Origin: Lytechinus pictus
Taxonomy: Eukaryota
Direction: 5' to 3'
Length of the DNA: 64,000 nucleotides
Assembly (NCBI RefSeq): GCF_037042905.1
Contig: NC_087245.1
Location: forward strand, 27,220,001-27,284,000
The number at the start of each line of letters is the position of its first letter. Within the stretch, counting starts at the first letter, position 1. Below the pieces are notes generated by a model. It was given only the letters and a program-made list of their open reading frames with translations, was not told where the DNA came from and made no database searches. Both the position numbers and the translations under genes were made by a program. Positions 34,822-58,297 of the stretch are shown in pieces.

Positions 34822-37800
34822 ATGAAAATGAAAGGTCGTCGCAGTGAAGGGAAGGGTGGATCAAAATCAAATCAGGGTTCTAATGAAGGGGCAGAGGATT
34901 CAGATGAATTCCAAGTTGAAGAAGATTATTCTGTTGCTCAAACTCCAATCTACATGGATGAGACATCGATCCTGAGAATGGTATGGGTGGGAATTATTCA
35001 ACTCCATGCAAGAAACAGAAGAAAAGTTTGCTCACTTAAAAGTATCCTATTTTTTAAATTTAAGCTGTCTTGGACAGTGTTAAATTTTTTTGTGAAAAAT
35101 GCAATTAATACAGTTTTAAAGCATTGTTTAAACAATTTTATCAATTTGATGTATCATTTCCATCTGTTTCATTAATATTATTTTACATTGGCCTAAATAG
35201 AAAAATGCCCTAAAGTCTAGACCTTTAATGAAGTTGTTGTATGACAAGTGAAGTTCAAATATACACTGTACTGTAGGCCTACTGAAATCTAGGCCTAATT
35301 ACATTTTGTTTGAAATACTGTAGCATACTCGTATCAATGTCTTATATTTTATGTTTTACCTCATTTCTTAAGATTAAGAGAGATTAAAATTTTTAAGATA
35401 AAGAATGATCTACTTTTAATACCAGTAATAACACAAGATCCCCTATATTATGGTGTATAAAAGAATATTCATTTTTGTTGCTAATTTCAATGAAGTATTG
35501 TATTCTATTTGCATTTTGTACATACATTTTGATTTACATTTTTGGTCGTGTTGTGAAACTAGATATAACTCTTCCATGCAGCTTTGAGAAATATATTGAT
35601 GATTATATTTCTGTGAGAATGTACTTTAGCACTGATTTTAAATTGTTTTAAGGGTGTTTACAACAAGTACACACATGGGAAACACCTAAAATCTTTTCAG
35701 AATTTCACTGTTGTCCTCTTATTTCCTTCCTTAGGGAGAACTTGAATCAAGTGAAACATCAATGATGAATAAGCGAAGCAGTAAGGTGCGTGTCTATGTA
35801 CGCACTAGGCCAACTGACAAGTTTGCCCAGGATATGATTGAGCTCGTTCCTGATGGCAAGGTAGGTTTTCCTCAAAAGTTTAGATTCATTAATCATTTAT
35901 TGAAGTCTTTGCTTAATTGAATCTGAGTCTGGTGAAAATTCTAAGAATGATGATTTTACAAACGCAGTGGGAATATATTTTTGTGATAATGATGATTGGT
36001 GACTTATAGTCATAATTTTAGAGTGTTGGGTCATCCTTACAAAAAGCATTAATTTATGACATTGTTCATCAAGTGTTTCTTTTGGTTACCTCTTATGCTA
36101 GTAGTTTATTTTGAACAAGAATGCATCACAAAAAATCTGATTAAAAACATGCAATTAACAAGGGAGCAGTACATTACCACAATTTTCATGTACATAATGT
36201 TCATATATGTTGCTATTTTTCTGTTTTACAGTTTTGTTTTACTTCCATCTAATGATCTAACAATATTTTCATGCTAGATCATATTAAATACAATTTGTAC
36301 AACTTTGTAGTTGCATGTAAAGATATAATTTCATGATGAAAAACAAAGGGTATGAATCATCATTCTTTATTGTCACAGAGCGTCAACATCCATGCCAAGA
36401 AAGATGTGAAAAGAGGCGTGGTGAACAATCAGATGTTAGATTGGTCCTTTAAGATGGATGGTATTCTTCATAATGCTAGTCAAGATAAGGTTTATGAAGA
36501 AGTTGCTTCACCTCTAGTCACACAGCTTCTTGATGGTTATAATGGTGAGTTTTTTAATATATTTTTTTATATAGATTATAGAACTTGATTTGCTGAATTT
36601 GCAATTTAAGTGTATTTTTATGAGAAAATTCAATTTTCCTTTAACCCCCCCCCCCCCTCATCCATGTGTGTGAGTTGTTATTTGTTATTGCTGTATTTTT
36701 GTATATTAGGAAATAATTTTGCTTACCAATTTGATGAGCTTTTTGGTCATAAAAGAAAAGCTCTTCACAACATACTGTGCAGTCCTATATGAAATCTGCT
36801 ATCCAAAGGTATTTTTTGTGGAGCATTAAAAAAAAATGTGGAGGAAATTGTGATGCTATACCAGGAAAAACATTCCATGTAGAAGTAATTTTTTTCTTTT
36901 TACATCAATTGTTTAACATTTATGTAGCCTGCATGAATGGCTTTCAATGATTTCTAAATTGCTTTCCACTTATCTGAAGGCAGGTCAATTTGTGATATTT
37001 GTAAGTCAGTCTCCATTTGTTTATTATAAGGATTTTTATTTCCATTTATTATCCAGATGCATAATTTGAATTCAGTTTGAGAAAAGTTGATTTATGGATG
37101 ATCATTAAAAGTTCCTATATTGTCTTATATTTGTTTTCATCTCATATTGTCTTTCACCCTGTATGTATGGTTAAATAAATAATGATAATTGTATTAAAGT
37201 AACTAAGAGAATCAGTTCAAGCAAGAAATATTTGAGAATCATCCATAACAAATCTCATTTCACTCTACTTCTTTAGTTGATAAACTAATTTGATTATCAA
37301 GTCGTGGAAGTTGATACAATTTTTTTAGAATGTGTACCTATTCTTTCTCACTCTGTATCTGTGAAGGGCTTATTTTTGAGGATATTAAGAGATGGTTTGT
37401 AATTGTATTGAGGCAAGATTTCAATATTCTGTCAAATTAACAGGGACATTATTATGTTATGGTCAAACTGGCGCTGGTAAAACCTACACAATGACTGGAG
37501 CAACAGAGAATTACAAGCAAAGAGGAATCATCCCAAGGGCTATCTCACAGGTATGTAAAGAACAGAAAATTGTCTAGTTTTATTTGCCATATGGTATTTG
37601 TGGCATAGTGAAAATTATTATGATTCCCCTGACTCTTGAAACATTTGTCATATGCATAGTTCATATCTGATTTATAAGGGTATTTGCATTTGATTCAATT
37701 TCCAAACCATTCAAACTAGAAAATATAAATCATCATTATTATCATACATACTATTTTTTTGCCTTTCAGTGTTTCTAATATATTTTACTTATAATTGAAA

Positions 37801-50666: not shown

Positions 50667-51332
50667 TTAAAGTACATTTAAATGCTTTTAATGATATAAT
50701 TGCACTTTCTCACATTAACAAGATGAATGTCAGAGAAATTTATGCTATACTGAGGAACGTGGATGTACTACTATGAAATGTTTCTAGGATACTTTTCCGT
50801 ACAGTTGTTGCAAAAAAAAATCTCACCTGACCTTTCTTATTTTCAAGCTTTCATTCTGTTGAACTTGTTAGCATTTCTTTCTTTCTGTTTTACTACATCG
50901 ATTTCAATATATTCACAATCTTCTGCCAGTCAATCTCCCTCTTCAACATATATCATTTTCTTTGTTTTTCTCATTACACCTACATCCTACATTCCTAATG
51001 ATCTCCTTTTCAAATTTCCAATTCTCTTGGGGTTTTTTTCCTCCTCTTTCTTTGGCAGTCTCTCCTTAGCCCCCTCCATAATACGCCCCTCTCATTTTAT
51101 TTTCAAGTTTCAACCATATCAACTCCTAACTTTTCTCCTCATATCTCTTTGGAATGTCTCATCTTCTCTCTTTCTTTCTCTTTACAACGAACACTTTGAT
51201 TGTTGCTTGCTCCTATTTTCACCATCTTGGCATTTCCAACTCCCATTTTCTGACTCCTAATTTCCCTCCTCGTTTTCTCTCTTTTTCACAAGCCACTTTC
51301 TTGGATGTTTTCTCCTATGGCATTTCCAACCC

Positions 51333-52285
51333 ATTTTTGTCTCACCTGCATAGCAGAGTGAGACTATAGGCGCCGCTTTTCCGACGGCGACGGCGGCGTC
51401 AACACCAAATCTTAACCTGAGGTTAAGTTTTTGAAATGACAGCATAACTTAGAAAGTATATGGACCTAGTTCATGAAACTTGGCCATAAGGTTAATCAAG
51501 TATTACTGAACATCCTCCCTGAGTTTCATGTCACATGACCAAGGTCAAAGGTCATTTAGGGTCAATGAACTTAGACCATGTTGGGGGAATCAACATCAAA
51601 ATCTTAACCTAAGGTTAAGTTTTTGAAATGTCATCATAACTTAGAAAATATATGGACCTAGTTCATGAAACTTATACATAAGGTTAATCAAGTATCACTG
51701 AACATCCTGCATGAGTTTCACATCACATGAACAAGGTCAAAGGTCATTTAGGGTCAATGAACTTTGGCCGAATTGGGGGTATCTGTTGAATTACCATCAT
51801 AACTTTGAAAGTTTATGGATCTGATTCATGAAACTTGGACATAATAGTAATCAAGTATTACTGAACATCCTGTGCAAGTTTCAGGTCACATGATCAAGGT
51901 CAAAGGTCATTTAGGGTCAATGAACTTTGGCCAAATTGGGGTATTTGTTGAATTACAGCCATAAATTTGAAAGTGTGTTGGTCTAGTTCATAAAACTTGG
52001 ACATAATAGTAATCAAGTATCACTGAACATCCTGTGCGAGTTTCAGGTCACATGATCAAGGTCAAAGGTCATGTAAGGTCAAAGAACTTTGGCCACGTTG
52101 GGGGTATTTGTTGAATTGCCATCATATCTCTATAAGTGTATTGGTCTAGTTCATAAAACGTGGAAATAAGAGTAACCAAGTATCACTGAACATCTTGTGC
52201 GAGTTATAGTAGTTTTCAAAATCAGCACTGCTGCTATATTGAATCGCGTGATGCAGGTGAGACGGCCAGAGGCATTCCACTTGTT
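51333..52285 (-). mobile_element. Helentron-associated tandem-repeat element, copy 2 (inverted, near-identical to 17079-18043)
   Basis: Its reverse complement matches copy 1 almost base for base; visible differences are a few substitutions and a shorter GCC tract. Confidence 0.9.
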
Positions 52286-53022
52286 CTCTCTCTCACTGCC
52301 TTTCTCTTCATAACTTCCTGCATTTTTTTTTTGCTGTCTCTTTCTCTGATTACCACAGCATTTTCTTTCCAACTCCAAAATTTTATCGTTTTTTTTCTTT
52401 CATTTCATCCCTTCCCCCTTGTCATCTCTTCACGCCCCACCTCTCTCTCCCTTCTCTTCTAAAGCTCGCCATTTTCCTATCCAGTGCTTTCAGTTTCTCC
52501 AAGGCTCTCATCTTGTGTTCTCCCTTCTCTTCCTCTCTTTCTCCTTCATTTCCAAAGGCTGTTCCATAGAGCCATTTTACCTACAGAACAACTTTAAACA
52601 TGACTGGTTACCCTTTCTTGGCCTCAATATGGTAGCCCAAACTTAATGTTTTAATTTACAAATGGAGTATATTTCCTATGTCCCTTATCAATGTTTGAAA
52701 GAAATTCACTACCAGAATACAGGCCAATTAGTTTTCTAGTTAGGTTTGATGAACATGAGGATTCTAATCTACAAAAGCAAGATTTCAACTGCAGCTGATG
52801 AGAATCAAAGATTGAGAATCTAACTTAGCACCCAAGAAAGGGTCATAGTCATTTTATATTACGTTATGTGTTATTTGCAAATATGAAACACTAGATATGA
52901 AACACTTTTGAACCTCATATGAACCGATAAAGTAGCCCGATTACACTCATTCCTTTGTTTTTACAAAATGTACAGCTTTATTTATTTCTATATATACAGC
53001 ATTTTATTGTTATCGTTCCTGT

Positions 53023-56000
53023 TCACCTAATGGCTTCTGCTTTTTCATTTGGGTTGCTAACATCCTCGGTCTCTATTGCCATTCCTACATCTGAGGTTAG
53101 TGTCACAGTGACTTCTGAAGCATGTTCCATTATCCAGGAATGCATCTTGTCTTGTCCAAGCTCTCTGTAAAGCTCATTCTGTCTACGCTCTGCCCTGGCT
53201 ACTTCTGCATTCATTCTGTATATATACAAAATTGTGAAAATCTGTAGATGACCCAAATGATTTGAGGTACAAGTATAACAAGAACAAAATGTTTGACATT
53301 TGCACAAGGTGCATTCCATGTCGTCAAAATGACTACAAATTTGCCAGTAACCATGATGACGGAAATTCAAATGAAAGCTTATTTCCTGCCATGTACTGTG
53401 TCAGCGAGTGTAATAAAAGCAATTATTTAATCTAATACAATCTCAGTGTCTGAAAATGTCTTTTAATAATTAATGTGAATCTTGGAAAACGAAAGCTTTG
53501 TCCTCTGAAAACATAAATCTTACCTGTTACTCTCACTCAAGGCTCTTTGGAGAAATGCATCAACCCGCTGATCCTCATCAGCATCGCCAACTCTTCGTCT
53601 TGCTTCCTACCAAAAGGACACGATAGACAACAATATGAAATAAGTATCAAAACTTAACTTAAATGACAGCTTAACTTCTAGATCTAGAATCTAGATCTAT
53701 AGACCTTTATCGCAAATAGATTCATGCAAAGGATCATTGGATCGAAAAGGGGGCAATAGCACTGCTATTGTCCGGATGCGACCATGCGAACGCTAGCAGC
53801 CGACAAGGGAGGCAGCATAGCTCAGTCGGTTAGAGCGCATGTTTTGGAGAAGATTGTAGATCTCAATGTGAGGGGTTTGAGTCCCGTACATGCCGAAACG
53901 CGTCTAACAAAAAATCTGATGCTATAGCGTTGTGTGTTAGCGTGCCTCACCACTTACTCTATTCAGTGCAGGTGTGAATACAGTTGGAAAACACTCCGTC
54001 CATCGGAAAGGACACAAATGTTGGTCCCGTGAGTCACAACCTATGCACGTTAAAACCAATACACTATTCGTCAAAGAGTAGGGTGTTCACCTGATGTATT
54101 GTATGCCATTATAATCAATATAATGATTGCGGGCATTAACGGAAAGACAAGACAAGATACTAGTAGTGCATGATTTCCATAGTGTATCAAAAGCCAACAT
54201 TTTGCTATCTTCAATTAAACGCCTCGTCATATGTGTTCCAGAGTCTAAAATCACTTTTCTTCTTCATTATGGGTGGCAGAGATAGATGTGCTGTTGATAG
54301 CTGCAAAAATTACCGAAGATTTTATGAGGACAAGTGCAATTTTGTTTAATTTTTGTGCACTGTCTGTGTGTATTCTGAGCTGTGCGGCTGTGACTGTGCA
54401 AAGTGTGCTTGTATGCACAGACTGCGGGCATTCTTGCACTCTCGACACCCATTTAATACGTGATTATAGATAATTATTATATTAAAAATAATAATTTATA
54501 ATCACGTATCAAATTTTAGTATTTGTTAAATAATAATTTTTATCTATAAATTGTTCTTGAAAACGGCATTTTTAATCGAAGGTACGTCATAACGAAGTGG
54601 TTCAAGGGTCAGACCTATTGTATTTGCTTTGTTGACAAACGGATCAAGGGATCTACACGAGATCAGTCTGGTAAGAAACCTTCAATTTTTCACCTTTTTA
54701 TTAACCAATTTTTGGAACCTTCATACGCATTAGGCGTTTGAAGGTTCAAATATCAATAAAATTCACACTTATAAACCGATTTCACCCTGTAAATATGGAT
54801 TTCCTAGGGAAATCCATCCGGGTGTGGAGGTCTCGCTTATGCATATATGGGAGGCGGTTCAAGGCTATATGTCAAAATATTAAAAAATATCATCATGGAG
54901 TCCTCAAGGCTAGGCTGGCTTCCTGAAAGCCGATTTCGTGTTTGCCCCCTTTCCATTCCCGTGAAGGCGTGATCCTTTGTGGTGACTGACCCTCACGAGA
55001 ATATGCTAAATTGCTATTTCATTTGCGATAAGGTTTAAATTAACGTTATGCAGACTTGGCCTGGGGCACAACAGAAAAAAAAAGCAACCCATTTATTAAA
55101 ACTCATATTAAAGTAAACTAAGGCAAACGACCTTGCTTAAGTTAGGGAATAGCCATAGGAGGCCGATAGAGAAACAGGAACTTAGTGACTGAACTGGAAG
55201 TCTCAACAATCTTTTGTTATTTTGGGTGGCGACGTGGCTGTCCCTGGCTAAGTTAAACTTAACGAGTAAGTTAGCTTGTTTGGCCTTAGACCAAAAGCTT
55301 CGGTCTCTGTTATGTTGGTTATTCAGCTGAACTCCGTTGGCTTGGCTAACCAAATACAGAGACCAAAGTTCTGGCGCGATCTGTACAGGGGACTCAAATG
55401 GGCATATATTTATGTCAGTAGAGGCGCACGGCCAATATTGGAGACTGTCTCCAATGTGGGAGATTATCTCCAATATCAGAGACTTTTGTAAAGAATTTGG
55501 GTATCCAATTTCAGAGACAGTCTCCAGTTTTGGAGACCCATTTCCTTTGTTTACATTTGCTGCAAAAGGATTACCTTGGCGGCAAATAAAAATGTGATAA
55601 GGAGATTCCTCATGAAAAATTACCCCTTTTCACCGTCTACTTTAAAAATTCACCGTCTATGGCAGTGAGTCCAAACTTCGCGCGTGTCCATACTTCGCGG
55701 ACGGTCATTATCTAAAAAAACTAGCCAATATCCTTAAAATCTGACATCACCAACGTGAAAAGCGACCTAAAATTACCCTTTGGTGTAAGTTTCTTTAGGA
55801 TGAGTTCAGTATTCATGAAAATATTGGCAAAAGATCGGCAAATTTGTCGCCGTTAGCGCCCGTTTTGAAGAAATCTGATATTCTCAACAAGCATCACGAT
55901 ATCACCATTTTGCAAGCATAAATCATCAAAAATGTGAGTTAAATATGGTACTAACCGATTCTATAGCATTTTGCCATCAATCTGATATAAATTTTTCACT

Positions 56001-57735
56001 TTTTCAGCTTGAGTTTCTGTTTAAATCTCCACAAAAACTTTGGTCCGCGAAGTTAGGTCACACTTTTTCTGAACGGTTTTCCAGCACAGCGCGCAATCGC
56101 CGATCGGAATAGAATTTTGAGATCGCGATACCGGCGAAAGCCCTTGACCTACTTCACATTTTCGTCCATGATTTTATACTTTATGATCTTGCCGTCAATG
56201 TGGTAACTATTTCTTGAATTCTTTTTGTATGAATTATGAATATTTTGTGAAAAAAAATTAGCCTGATGAATATTTTTGAAAAGTGCGCGAAGTTTGGACA
56301 CCCCATCATACTTTTGTTTTGATAAGGATTTTTGTTGTCAATCACACACAAAACAAATGGGCTTCTGACCTCAGTGAGACAAAATTTTGGGTGGAAAAAA
56401 TCTTGCTTTTGTTGGTGTTGTTTCTTTTGTCCTTTTGCAAAGCAAGTCTCCAATGTGGGAGATTGTCTCCCCTATTGGAGAGAGTCTCCCATATTGGCCG
56501 TGCGCCTCTACTGTATGTATTATTTAGTTAATTCGATTAAAACAGGGAAGTGAAGTTGCGCGACAGCGGAGGTAAGTCACTGTTTTTGTTCCTTTTAACT
56601 TTATTTTTTCCCCGTTTATTGGCAATTAATGTCAAGAGGGAATATTAATTTGCATTTCGGTCGCGTTAATTTTCAAAAGTTTGATTCATTAAAGGAGAAT
56701 GAAACTCTTGGAGCAAGTTAGCTTTTGTGAAAGCAGAAAAATCAAAGAATAAGATCAACAAAACTTTGAGTAAAATAGGACTAGCAATAAAAGAGTTATG
56801 AGCATTTGAATGTCGAGATCACTAATGCTATGGAGATCCTCACATTGGCAATGCGACCAAGATCTGTGATGTCACACACGTACAACTCTCCCATTTGGAC
56901 ACTGAAAATATACCCCAAAACATCTCTTTTTGCTCATTCTAATCATATGACAAACGATTCATCAATGATATAATGTTGTGAAACCTCTGTACTTGTCATC
57001 TCATAAAGAGAACACCTCACCTTGTGATAGACTCTATAAAAGTGAGAATATAAGTGAAATAAGTACTAAAGTAATGAGGGAGTTGTACGTGTGTGATATC
57101 ACAGATCTTGGTCGCATTGCCGTTGTGAGGATCTACATGGCACTAGTGATCTCAATATTCGAATGCTCATAACTTTCTTATTATTCATTCAATCTTCCTC
57201 AAACTTTCAACAGTATTTTTCTTTGATTTTTCTCTTTGATATGGATTCAGCTGGTTTCAAGGGTTTCATTCTCCTTTAATTTAAAGACAAAAATTGAAGA
57301 GCCCCGACGGGGGATTTTGCATTGTAAGTCCCCTAATGGTGGCTGCACGATAGCGAGCCGTCTGTGTACGAGGAGAAATTAAAAAATGTTAAAAAACTCG
57401 AAACAGACGGCTGCCAGTTGTCTAGTTTGGCCTTTGCCTGGCGCCGCGGACTCGGAGCGATTTCCCATCGGAGCTGACCGGCATCGCATCGCCAACTCTT
57501 CGGGCGTGCCGGATCTTCCTCACCCTGCCCGCTGACAACGTCAACGCGCCGACAGACCAATATAATCACTCAGTAGTCAGACAGTATCACACGTTTGTAC
57601 ACTAATCAAGATCTAAATCGCCACTAAAATTCTCCTTACCTTTTGTTCTTCGTAATTCCGTGCTACAAAATCTGCCAAATGATTAGGTTTATTATCATTT
57701 TCTTGTGGATTTTGAGTTAAATCTCGATTTTCCAT
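53023..57735 (-). CDS. Hypothetical 123-aa protein, 3 exons (no family recognised)
   Basis: Exons 57735-57640 (ATG..AAG|GTAAG, phase 0), 53606-53524 (TAG|..AG|GTAAG, phase 2) and 53215-53023 (CAG|..TGA). The joined frame is open: MENRDLTQNPQENDNKPNHLADFVARNYEEQKEARRRVGDADEDQRVDAFLQRALSESNRMNAEVARAERRQNELYRELGQDKMHSWIMEHASEVTVTLTSDVGMAIETEDVSNPNEKAEAIR. Minus-strand AATAAA at 53008-53003 and 52986-52981. Confidence 0.72.
53808..54100 (+). mobile_element. tRNA-derived SINE (family A, copy 2), 3' truncated
   Basis: ggaggcagcatagctcagtcggttagagcg...ggtttgagtccc; homologous to 341-713. Confidence 0.8.
55416..56513. mobile_element. Non-autonomous DNA transposon with perfect 23-bp TIRs and 5-bp TSD (hAT5-like?)
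   Basis: TATGT|CAGTAGAGGCGCACGGCCAATAT ... ATATTGGCCGTGCGCCTCTACTG|TATGT, with subterminal GGAGA/TCTCC repeats. Confidence 0.8.
56693..57275. mobile_element. Kolobok-like MITE (TTAA TSD), same family as 28591-29179 in opposite orientation
   Basis: ttaa|aggagaatgaaac ... gtttcattctcct|ttaa; the core is the reverse complement of the 28591 copy's core. Confidence 0.85.
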
Positions 57736-57743
57736 CGCGTCTT

Positions 57744-57756
57744 GTTGCTTGGCGAT
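57744..57756. promoter_or_regulatory. RFX X-box-like motif adjacent to the ATG of the 123-aa gene
   Basis: GTTGCTTGGCGAT, 8 nt upstream of the start codon; resembles the GTTGCYNGGCAAC consensus. Confidence 0.45.
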
Positions 57757-58297
57757 CTTCTTTTTTTTTCTCAGAAACGCCATCTACGACTAAATATGGG
57801 AAAATTCACCTATGCAGATTGAAAATTGATAGAAAAATACTAGTAAAGGTTTCAGCCCCATTCAGTCGATGACAGCAGCTCCTCCAAATGTTGTGTGATA
57901 AAAATTCCCCAAAATGCAATTTTCTAAAAATAAATAAAAATGAAAATAAAAAATTGAACAAATAATAAGGATTGAAACTAATTTTATTTGTGCGTTGGAT
58001 GTATGATGCAGGAGCTCTAGGCTCTAGACACATTAGGCCTATATATACTCCTATTTCATTTTATAGGCCTACCCCTTTTGAATATTCATCATATTCCATT
58101 ACAAAGTTTGAATAAACAGAATAATGGGGAAGCTGCTCGAATAATGACGTCACGAACCCTTAATTGGTTGATGTGTCGGAGTTTTTTATGATTGTGGAAA
58201 GGAAGGAAGGTATAGAGGGGAAGCTTATCGAATGGGAAAAAAGGAATTAAGGAAGGGAAAAGGGAAGGAAGAAGGAAAAGAGGGGAGGAAGAATTAA

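Follow-up and report, generated by a model that had tools for sequence, protein, structure and literature searches.

A three-exon gene of Lytechinus pictus and its unnamed family of small proteins with a possible link to cilia

Three short open segments on the minus strand of a 64,000-nt stretch of the Lytechinus pictus genome (the window) raise the question of whether they form a real gene and, if so, what kind of protein it encodes. The initial annotation described them as a hidden gene of 123 codons, preceded by an X-box-like motif and possibly encoding a ciliary protein. Hidden it is not, as RefSeq already carries the gene as LOC129274500 in L. pictus and LOC121406525 in L. variegatus, both labelled “uncharacterized”. 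The L. pictus record describes the protein of the window gene and the L. variegatus record its orthologue, but they hold neither a family nor a function. Novelty lies in the unnamed family to which the annotated gene belongs.

Gene structure, splicing and start codon

Sequence analysis reproduced the gene structure of the initial annotation, with its exons and splice sites, its phases and the frame of 123 aa. The three minus-strand exons give 372 nt, encoding 123 aa and a TGA stop codon, and both introns are of the GT..AG type. The coding part of exon 1 (57640-57735, 96 nt), counted in the sequence from the ATG that opens the 123-aa frame, is followed by intron 1 (53607-57639, 4033 nt, phase 0), exon 2 (53524-53606, 83 nt), where the long conserved helix begins, intron 2 (53216-53523, 308 nt, phase 2) and the coding part of exon 3 including TGA (53023-53215, 193 nt). 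The alignment places the invariant residues Met61 and His91 in exon 3, together with Gly80 and Trp87. Several inverted-repeat elements are located inside intron 1. The 3′ untranslated region (52574-53022, minus strand) harbors AATAAA at 53008-53003 and 52986-52981 on the same strand. The first of these begins at the 15th base past the stop codon, as had been described, but it is not the sole 3′ end in a close relative, organism B, since an X5 contig of that organism continues to 52574.

RNA data of this relative (X22 and X5) and of organism A (X19 and X15) were searched for the predicted junctions 57640>53606 and 53524>53215. In X22, intron 1 is skipped exactly by 43 reads with 30 start places and intron 2 by 34 reads with 22 start places, the latter reads skipping 309 nt with one letter between, which is a net 308. 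Both joints are present in one X5 contig. Neither was found in the two organism-A runs examined, and X19 showed zero depth over 52838-53505, including exon 3, in the roughly 6 in 100 of that run that was read. Exon depth amounts to about 20-40 reads versus hundreds to thousands on nearby repeats, and the ORF showed no Pfam match and no transposase or RT homology. A transposon-derived ORF is ruled out by this non-repeat depth and the absence of a Pfam match. A 17-mer shared with a repeat in an intron raised the possibility that exon 2 arose from it by exonisation, which was dropped because 10 of 1000 random pieces share as much. The gene is thus real, spliced and conserved, falls into no known non-ciliary family and is no transposon, so that nothing was found of what the initial annotation had named as speaking against it (no splicing, no conserved ORF, a known non-ciliary family or a transposon).

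The start codon is less straightforward, as an upstream in-frame ATG at 57783 had been overlooked. It adds a 16-codon extension (57736-57783, minus strand) and opens a 139-aa frame identical to the current RefSeq model, XP_054767302.2. The start of the 123-aa form is also used by XP_041453470.1 of L. variegatus (123 aa, 94% identical) and by the earlier L. pictus model XP_054767302.1 (124 aa), and reads of both X22 and X5 cover exon 1. The end of the X5 contig lies near 57742 (computed from the record length, and not a mapped transcription start), short of the ATG at 57783, and past 57848 the depth in X22 amounts to 0.15. The upstream ATG is probably not the one used, and the 123-aa start fits the remaining evidence better. 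This suggests that the current RefSeq start for L. pictus lies 16 codons too far upstream of the start backed by L. variegatus, the earlier L. pictus model and X5.

An unnamed family of small proteins

A profile search detected 43 further relatives, giving 44 representatives at E<=1e-3 when the query is counted. Ten of these 43 were looked up, and the taxa comprise Nematostella (UniProt A7S231), Lingula, Dreissena, Octopus, Bradybaena, Ridgeia, Branchiostoma and high-GC eukaryotes. Profiles of seven non-echinoid named members and of eight Ala-rich members recovered P0002 at E 1.1e-20 and 7.7e-16, respectively. Met61 and His91 are invariant in all 45 members aligned, and glutamate is frequent at positions 57 (35/42), 64 (40/45) and 90 (41/45). 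The motif W-x-x-[ED]-H occurs in 39 of the 45 and the pattern F-x-x-R-A-x-x-E-S-x-R-M in 34. All nine members tested are acidic, with a pI of 4.3-5.3. Between the L. pictus and L. variegatus proteins there is one difference in residues 17-99 and there are six in the tails; the core read differences, four among the 40 of 992 difference rows listed, are all synonymous. Judged from these comparisons, the core is under constraint. The members share an acidic core of three predicted helices.

In age, the family reaches back at least to cnidarians and bilaterians. Membership probably extends to protists, and the family is far older than the echinoderms, a point which the initial annotation had overlooked. 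Because the family tree is poorly settled (the search was incomplete and 25 of 42 inner branches stayed open), no phylogenetic claim is drawn from it. Longer or fused forms of 246-2000 aa were absent among 8000 candidates, which is weak evidence. Prokaryote genomes, scanned with a single pattern, gave 27 matches, none of them confirmed; a metagenome scan with P0021 likewise gave 598 matches without a confirmed one, and a scan with A4 gave three loci out of 599 matches. With respect to the literature, the main texts of papers contained neither the Lytechinus identifiers nor any of six that belong to members from Nematostella, Lingula and Branchiostoma, and no identifier occurred in the supplements of PMC9481973. 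The supplements of PMC11473876 and PMC9712504 contained neither the identifiers nor a control word and are hence uninformative.

Searches linked the family to no Pfam domain and no PDB sequence. In Pfam-A, at most three of the 45 members share one family (E 0.069), and searches of PDB chain sequences reached best E values of 0.086 (phmmer), of 0.13 in a second search and of 0.21 (45-sequence profile), with none of the chains axonemal. A model built from 45 sequences (mean pLDDT 80.8, pTM 0.52) predicts helices at residues 18-36, 41-79 and 81-98, the conserved Gly80 marking a break, and an all-helical fold without a compact domain. With the first model, Foldseek against the PDB returned six rows, all of them at E 7.5 or worse, and with the second model none. 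The ESM Atlas gave no feature match for P0002 or P0011, and its structure rows, all with TM <0.5 by query, are uninformative. VIA-align against 48,161 chains found none at Z>=8, the best being Z 7.9 (rmsd 2.1, 64 aligned), and returned generic helical hairpins. These included two chains of doublet microtubules (Z 7.1 and 6.5, identity 8-9%), which were counted neither way.

Methionine, histidine and glutamate serve as metal or haem ligands, and the invariance of Met61 and His91 together with the frequent glutamates would suit a small helical bundle that binds metal or haem through these two residues with Glu57, Glu64 and Glu90. Against this, the conserved motif is W-x-x-E-H and no canonical E-x-x-H pair exists, the model forms no compact bundle, and ferritin rows of the first Foldseek run appeared at E 8.5 or worse. 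We regard such a bundle as very improbable.

Evidence for and against a ciliary role

RFX factors recognize the X-box, for which the consensus GTNRCC-N(0-3)-RGYAAC is given in 10.1101/2022.11.11.515474. The candidate site at 57744-57756 (minus strand) lies 8 nt before the 123-aa ATG and consists of a perfect RGYAAC half-site, a 1-nt spacer and a second half, the comparison giving one mismatch to the consensus. The motif reported initially stands as a near-consensus site; the letters quoted for it were those of the plus strand, and the gene strand carries their reverse complement. According to the same source, RFX motifs in S. rosetta occur in 21.9% of ciliary versus 2.0% of all promoters, with 60.4% of them no more than 50 bp from the start. 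Of all window positions, 1.7% have a comparable site at a distance of up to 50 nt and 3.4% at a distance of up to 100 nt. Where the candidate sits is thus a 2-3% event, for a site chosen after the fact. Under the 139-aa RefSeq model the site would be coding. The two known ciliary genes in the window have no site of like quality within 300 nt of their apparent first ATG.

Expression was taken from PMC12521550 (file 6), which lists LOC121406525 as enriched in cluster 1 of the culture in 5% FBS (32.5% versus 15.8% of cells, adjusted p 7.6e-10), one of at least two ciliated clusters. The markers of this cluster include RSPH4, tektin-B1, enkurin and PACRG, and hyalin and fibropellin mark it as epithelial too. 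At about twofold, the enrichment is lower than the three- to fivefold of axonemal genes and equals that of the general genes NPEPL1 and NDUFA9 at neighbouring ranks. Among the matches listed, LOC121406525 has a single row, in cluster 1, and none under cluster 5, which also has radial-spoke markers; it is missing from the bulk table of that study.

These data are open to a reading in which the protein has a general, non-ciliary role in the cytoplasm of marine invertebrates and some protists, as an adaptor or as the subunit of a complex, with the X-box-like site arising by chance. Its detection in 15.8% of the cells that do not belong to the ciliated cluster, the housekeeping-like enrichment and the lack of any ciliary motif in the family agree with it, as do window-wide X-box matches at chance level (4 versus 2.66 and 3 versus 2.59 expected). 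It would, however, leave the site ahead of the ATG as a 2-3% event, the sole cluster among the matches listed is a ciliated one, and the core ciliary gene IFT46 is similarly weak there (26.2 versus 11.0; PMC12521550 file 6). We consider this reading a serious possibility, although not a probable one. Octopus and a land snail retain the gene, an observation equally compatible with many housekeeping roles.

The initial annotation had suggested that the protein may be axonemal or sperm-flagellar; a doublet microtubule inner protein (MIP) would be one such structural protein. A small, helical protein with an extended model, an X-box and a cluster common to tektins and radial-spoke genes would suit this proposal, and the small doublet MIPs built with NWE, SNYG, PYG, GFG and ELLEn modules (PMC10973386) are similar in size, helical and extended. 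The present family differs from them in being acidic and in the absence of their motifs: neither NWE ([ILV]-L-I-G-N-W-x-E) nor SNYG ([ST]-N-x-x-[ILVY]-G) occurs in any of the 45 members, and the same holds for PYG, GFG and ELLEn with rough patterns that were derived from their names only. Moreover, no axonemal chain appeared among PDB sequence matches up to E 10; as a positive control, a neighbouring NME8-like exon does retrieve axoneme chains in this search, and 8SNB is a sea-urchin doublet model. The enrichment is also weaker than that of axonemal genes. A structural role in the axoneme or sperm flagellum is accordingly improbable, a doublet inner protein is unlikely, and this part of the initial annotation was not borne out.

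Proposed role and meaning of the family

The wider ciliary proposal retains modest support from the X-box with one mismatch and the weak enrichment in the ciliated cluster, and we consider a ciliary role plausible, at slightly less than an even chance. Our best explanation, put forward tentatively and at about the same level, is a conserved small acidic helical binding subunit, possibly switched by RFX within the general cilium-building programme. RFX-regulated core ciliary genes such as IFT46 resemble the window gene in the 5′ X-box-like site and the weak enrichment; they have no sequence relation to it, and RFX control would be putative here. The protein would likely be a non-enzymatic binding subunit, with positions 46, 50, 53, 54, 57, 58, 60, 61 and 64 of the long helix and the Trp-x-x-Glu-His motif forming a docking surface for one conserved partner, while the tails would be dispensable. 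RFX may bind the site adjoining the 5′ end, and the partner could be ciliary, in an assembly, transport or accessory complex and not in the doublet lumen.

It is a more doubtful proposition that the family is an undescribed, pre-animal small ciliary family, kept by microbial eukaryotes with flagella and by invertebrates ranging from sea anemone to amphioxus, supposedly absent from vertebrates and ecdysozoans, and missing from vertebrate and model-organism sets. As such sets lie behind ciliary inventories, the family would, if this reading were true, be a component which those inventories missed. The published sea-anemone ciliome was searched against UniProt Nematostella proteins, as stated in 10.1101/153437.

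The gene model itself is ordinary. The searches add to it an unnamed but coherent family whose invariant residues recur in cnidarians, spiralians, deuterostomes and probably protists, and which has neither a Pfam model nor a solved relative. If ciliary, it would represent a conserved component that catalogues centred on human and Chlamydomonas do not show; if not, it is still a new family worth a Pfam entry.

Gene structure, splicing and annotation

The candidate gene lies on the minus strand and comprises three exons (exon 1, coding part 57735-57640; exon 2, 53606-53524; exon 3, coding part with TGA, 53215-53023), separated by two introns (4033 and 308 nt; phases 0 and 2) with GT..AG borders. 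As described in the initial annotation, the exons give 123 codons followed by TGA, and the 15th base past the stop is the first of an AATAAA. The ATG of this form is present as described; an in-frame ATG at 57783, giving 139 aa, had been overlooked. With exon 3 as query, two proteins emerged from three candidates, namely LOC129274500 of L. pictus (uncharacterized, 139 aa, identical to the long frame) and LOC121406525 of L. variegatus (123 aa). In an earlier version of the L. pictus model, XP_054767302.1 (124 aa), translation begins at the ATG of the 123-aa form. From these matches and the earlier model it follows that the gene is already annotated and only nameless, so it is not "hidden" as first claimed. 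Between the two L. pictus RefSeq versions (P0004 and P0001) there are several substitutions and an insertion of one residue, which shows allelic variation at the locus.

Four of the 24 listed runs were examined. In raw RNA reads of a close relative, organism B (run X22), intron 1 is skipped exactly by 43 reads and intron 2 by 34, which are the junctions 57640>53606 and 53524>53215 that had been predicted; both joints also occur in one contig of a second organism-B run (X5). All six listed amino-acid-changing differences of organism B agree with the L. variegatus protein. Neither joint was present in the examined runs of organism A, of which X19 (about 6 in 100 of the run read) had zero depth over exon 3. 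These reads establish splicing in the close relative and not in organism A. The X5 contig (802 nt) aligns from 52574, and by subtraction about 104 nt remain for exon 1, placing its end near 57742, short of the upstream ATG. This contig end, which is not a mapped start, favours the 123-aa form together with the two RefSeq models. Between the L. pictus and L. variegatus proteins, one difference falls within residues 17-99 and six in the tails; the four core read differences listed (among 40 of 992 difference rows) are all synonymous.

Genomic surroundings

Between 82 and 48000, an NME8/IC1-like gene (minus; NDK and thioredoxin pieces), an exon near 21968 (minus; presumably a SOSS-B/NABP-like first exon) and a kinesin gene (plus; which we take to be KIF9-like) precede the candidate in a row, the kinesin gene lying tail to tail with it. 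Two of the candidate's three closest recognisable neighbours are therefore ciliary genes. Some 900 nt upstream of the kinesin start lies an ATG-led plus-strand frame of at least 53 codons (34822-34980) that matches no Pfam entry; it may represent a gene of its own or an additional exon. A purine-rich minus-strand stretch (50760-52640, 71-74%) with many stops resembles decayed charged coding sequence; it is interrupted by a 163-nt tandem array (51399-52205), its unique parts have almost no RNA depth, and at a guess it is possibly an old retroelement. Intron 1 holds nested MITE-like inverted repeats (55416-56513 and 56688-57280); reads there bridge 55657 to 56309 and 56688 to 57281, as if derived from empty sites or from related copies at other loci. 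An exact 17-mer occurs both in exon 2 (53581-53597) and in GC-rich sequence of intron 1 (57486-57502); with matches to the intron just as good for 10 of 1000 random pieces, it is likely chance or a repeat.

The X-box-like site and expression

The 13-mer at 57744-57756, just above the X5 contig end, indeed lies 8 nt before the ATG of the 123-aa form and is coding in the longer frame. Its RGYAAC half is perfect, and it has one mismatch to GTNRCC-N(0-3)-RGYAAC, the RFX consensus quoted in 10.1101/2022.11.11.515474. For S. rosetta, that source gives RFX motifs in 21.9% of ciliary versus 2.0% of all promoters, mostly ≤50 bp from the start. Across the whole window such matches occur at chance level (4 seen versus 2.66 expected; 3 versus 2.59). 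With 12 sites of this quality in the window, a position has another one within 50 nt in 1.7% of cases and within 100 nt in 3.4%; the placement is therefore mildly unusual, though the site was picked post hoc. Within 300 nt of the apparent first ATG of either known ciliary gene (near 9336 and 35762), no such site occurs. Two perfect matches (856-869 and 3914-3928) fall between NME8/IC1-like exons, where they may point to a promoter inside or next to that gene.

Expression was taken from supplementary tables 1-12 of PMC12521550 (cluster rows from file 6). Among the rows listed, LOC121406525 has one, in cluster 1 of the 5% FBS culture (32.5% versus 15.8% of cells, log2FC 0.31, adjusted p 7.6e-10), a cluster marked by RSPH4 (43.7/9.1), tektin-B1 (34.9/6.9), enkurin (38.6/10.6) and PACRG and likewise containing hyalin and fibropellin. 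It ranks near IFT46 (26.2/11.0), DYNLRB2 (32.2/15.1), NPEPL1 and NDUFA9. IFT46 resembles it in enrichment and also in missing from the rows listed for cluster 5, which has radial-spoke markers too. As KIF9 and RFX likewise have no listed row, the table is insensitive. These data lend weak support to a general ciliary gene and none to a structural axonemal one. The suggested ciliary role is plausible, with this support and the site's placement on one side and the chance level of matches and the gene's absence from the bulk table of PMC12521550 on the other; a non-ciliary adaptor is a possible, somewhat doubtful reading.

An unnamed ancient protein family

A four-sequence echinoid profile searched against 1.84 billion representatives gave 44 proteins at E≤1e-3, query included (57-167 aa); Diadema antillarum and D. 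setosum have relatives of 140 aa. Ten of the 43 non-query relatives were looked up taxonomically: seven are named uncharacterised members from Nematostella (A7S231), Lingula, Dreissena, Octopus, Bradybaena, Ridgeia and Branchiostoma, and three are environmental sequences without a name. No Pfam family is common to more than 3 of the 45 members, which, with 10 of 43 relatives looked up, only hints at absence from vertebrates or insects. Reciprocal profiles of seven non-echinoid named members and of eight Ala-rich members recover the candidate protein (E 1.1e-20 and 7.7e-16), and by this sequence measure the family is coherent. Three metagenome loci code for Ala-rich members and are probably eukaryotic: L001 (GC3 0.77), L002 and L003. 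In L002 (1-3300), an intronless DHX8/PRP22 helicase frame is followed after about 190 nt by the family member, the two differing in GC3 (0.30 versus 0.49); the locus is either compact or possibly a chimeric contig. L003 (GC3 0.98), with a tail-to-tail neighbour weakly matching TTL (E 0.012), would by base composition be of non-animal origin.

Met61 and His91 are invariant (45/45), and Phe23, Gln31, Arg46, Phe50, Arg53, Ala54, Glu57, Ser58, Arg60, Glu64, Gly80, Trp87 and Glu90 are strongly conserved; a metal- or haem-binding bundle is very improbable. All nine members tested are acidic (pI 4.3-5.3). AlphaFold2 with 45 sequences predicts helices at 18-36, 41-79 and 81-98 (mean pLDDT 80.8, pTM 0.52, weak tails), that is, confident secondary structure and no compact fold, as might be expected for a subunit settling on a partner. 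PDB sequence searches gave best E-values of 0.086, 0.13 and 0.21 with no axonemal chain among these hits, whereas an NME8-like exon of the same window, as positive control, does match axoneme chains. Unlike those doublet microtubule inner proteins that carry NWE or SNYG modules, none of the 45 members has either consensus as defined in PMC10973386. With the expression data, this argues against the axonemal or sperm structural protein first proposed, and a doublet or sperm structural role is improbable. As the likeliest reading, at not quite an even chance, we tentatively propose a small acidic helical subunit under putative RFX control: its conserved helix face and W-x-x-E-H motif would dock on one ciliary partner, and RFX would drive its expression.

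Ten identifiers of family members occur in none of the main texts of the accessible literature, and no description of the family was found in the literature searched; most subscription papers lie outside this scope, and supplements may list the family, most notably the 10.1101/153437 ciliome tables, whose searches ran against UniProt Nematostella proteins. No Strongylocentrotus purpuratus protein is among the close relatives in the homologue search; the gene model may be missing there, in which case sea-urchin proteomics would overlook the protein. The candidate is a real gene, known as an uncharacterised model, and the new part is the ancient, nameless family to which it belongs.
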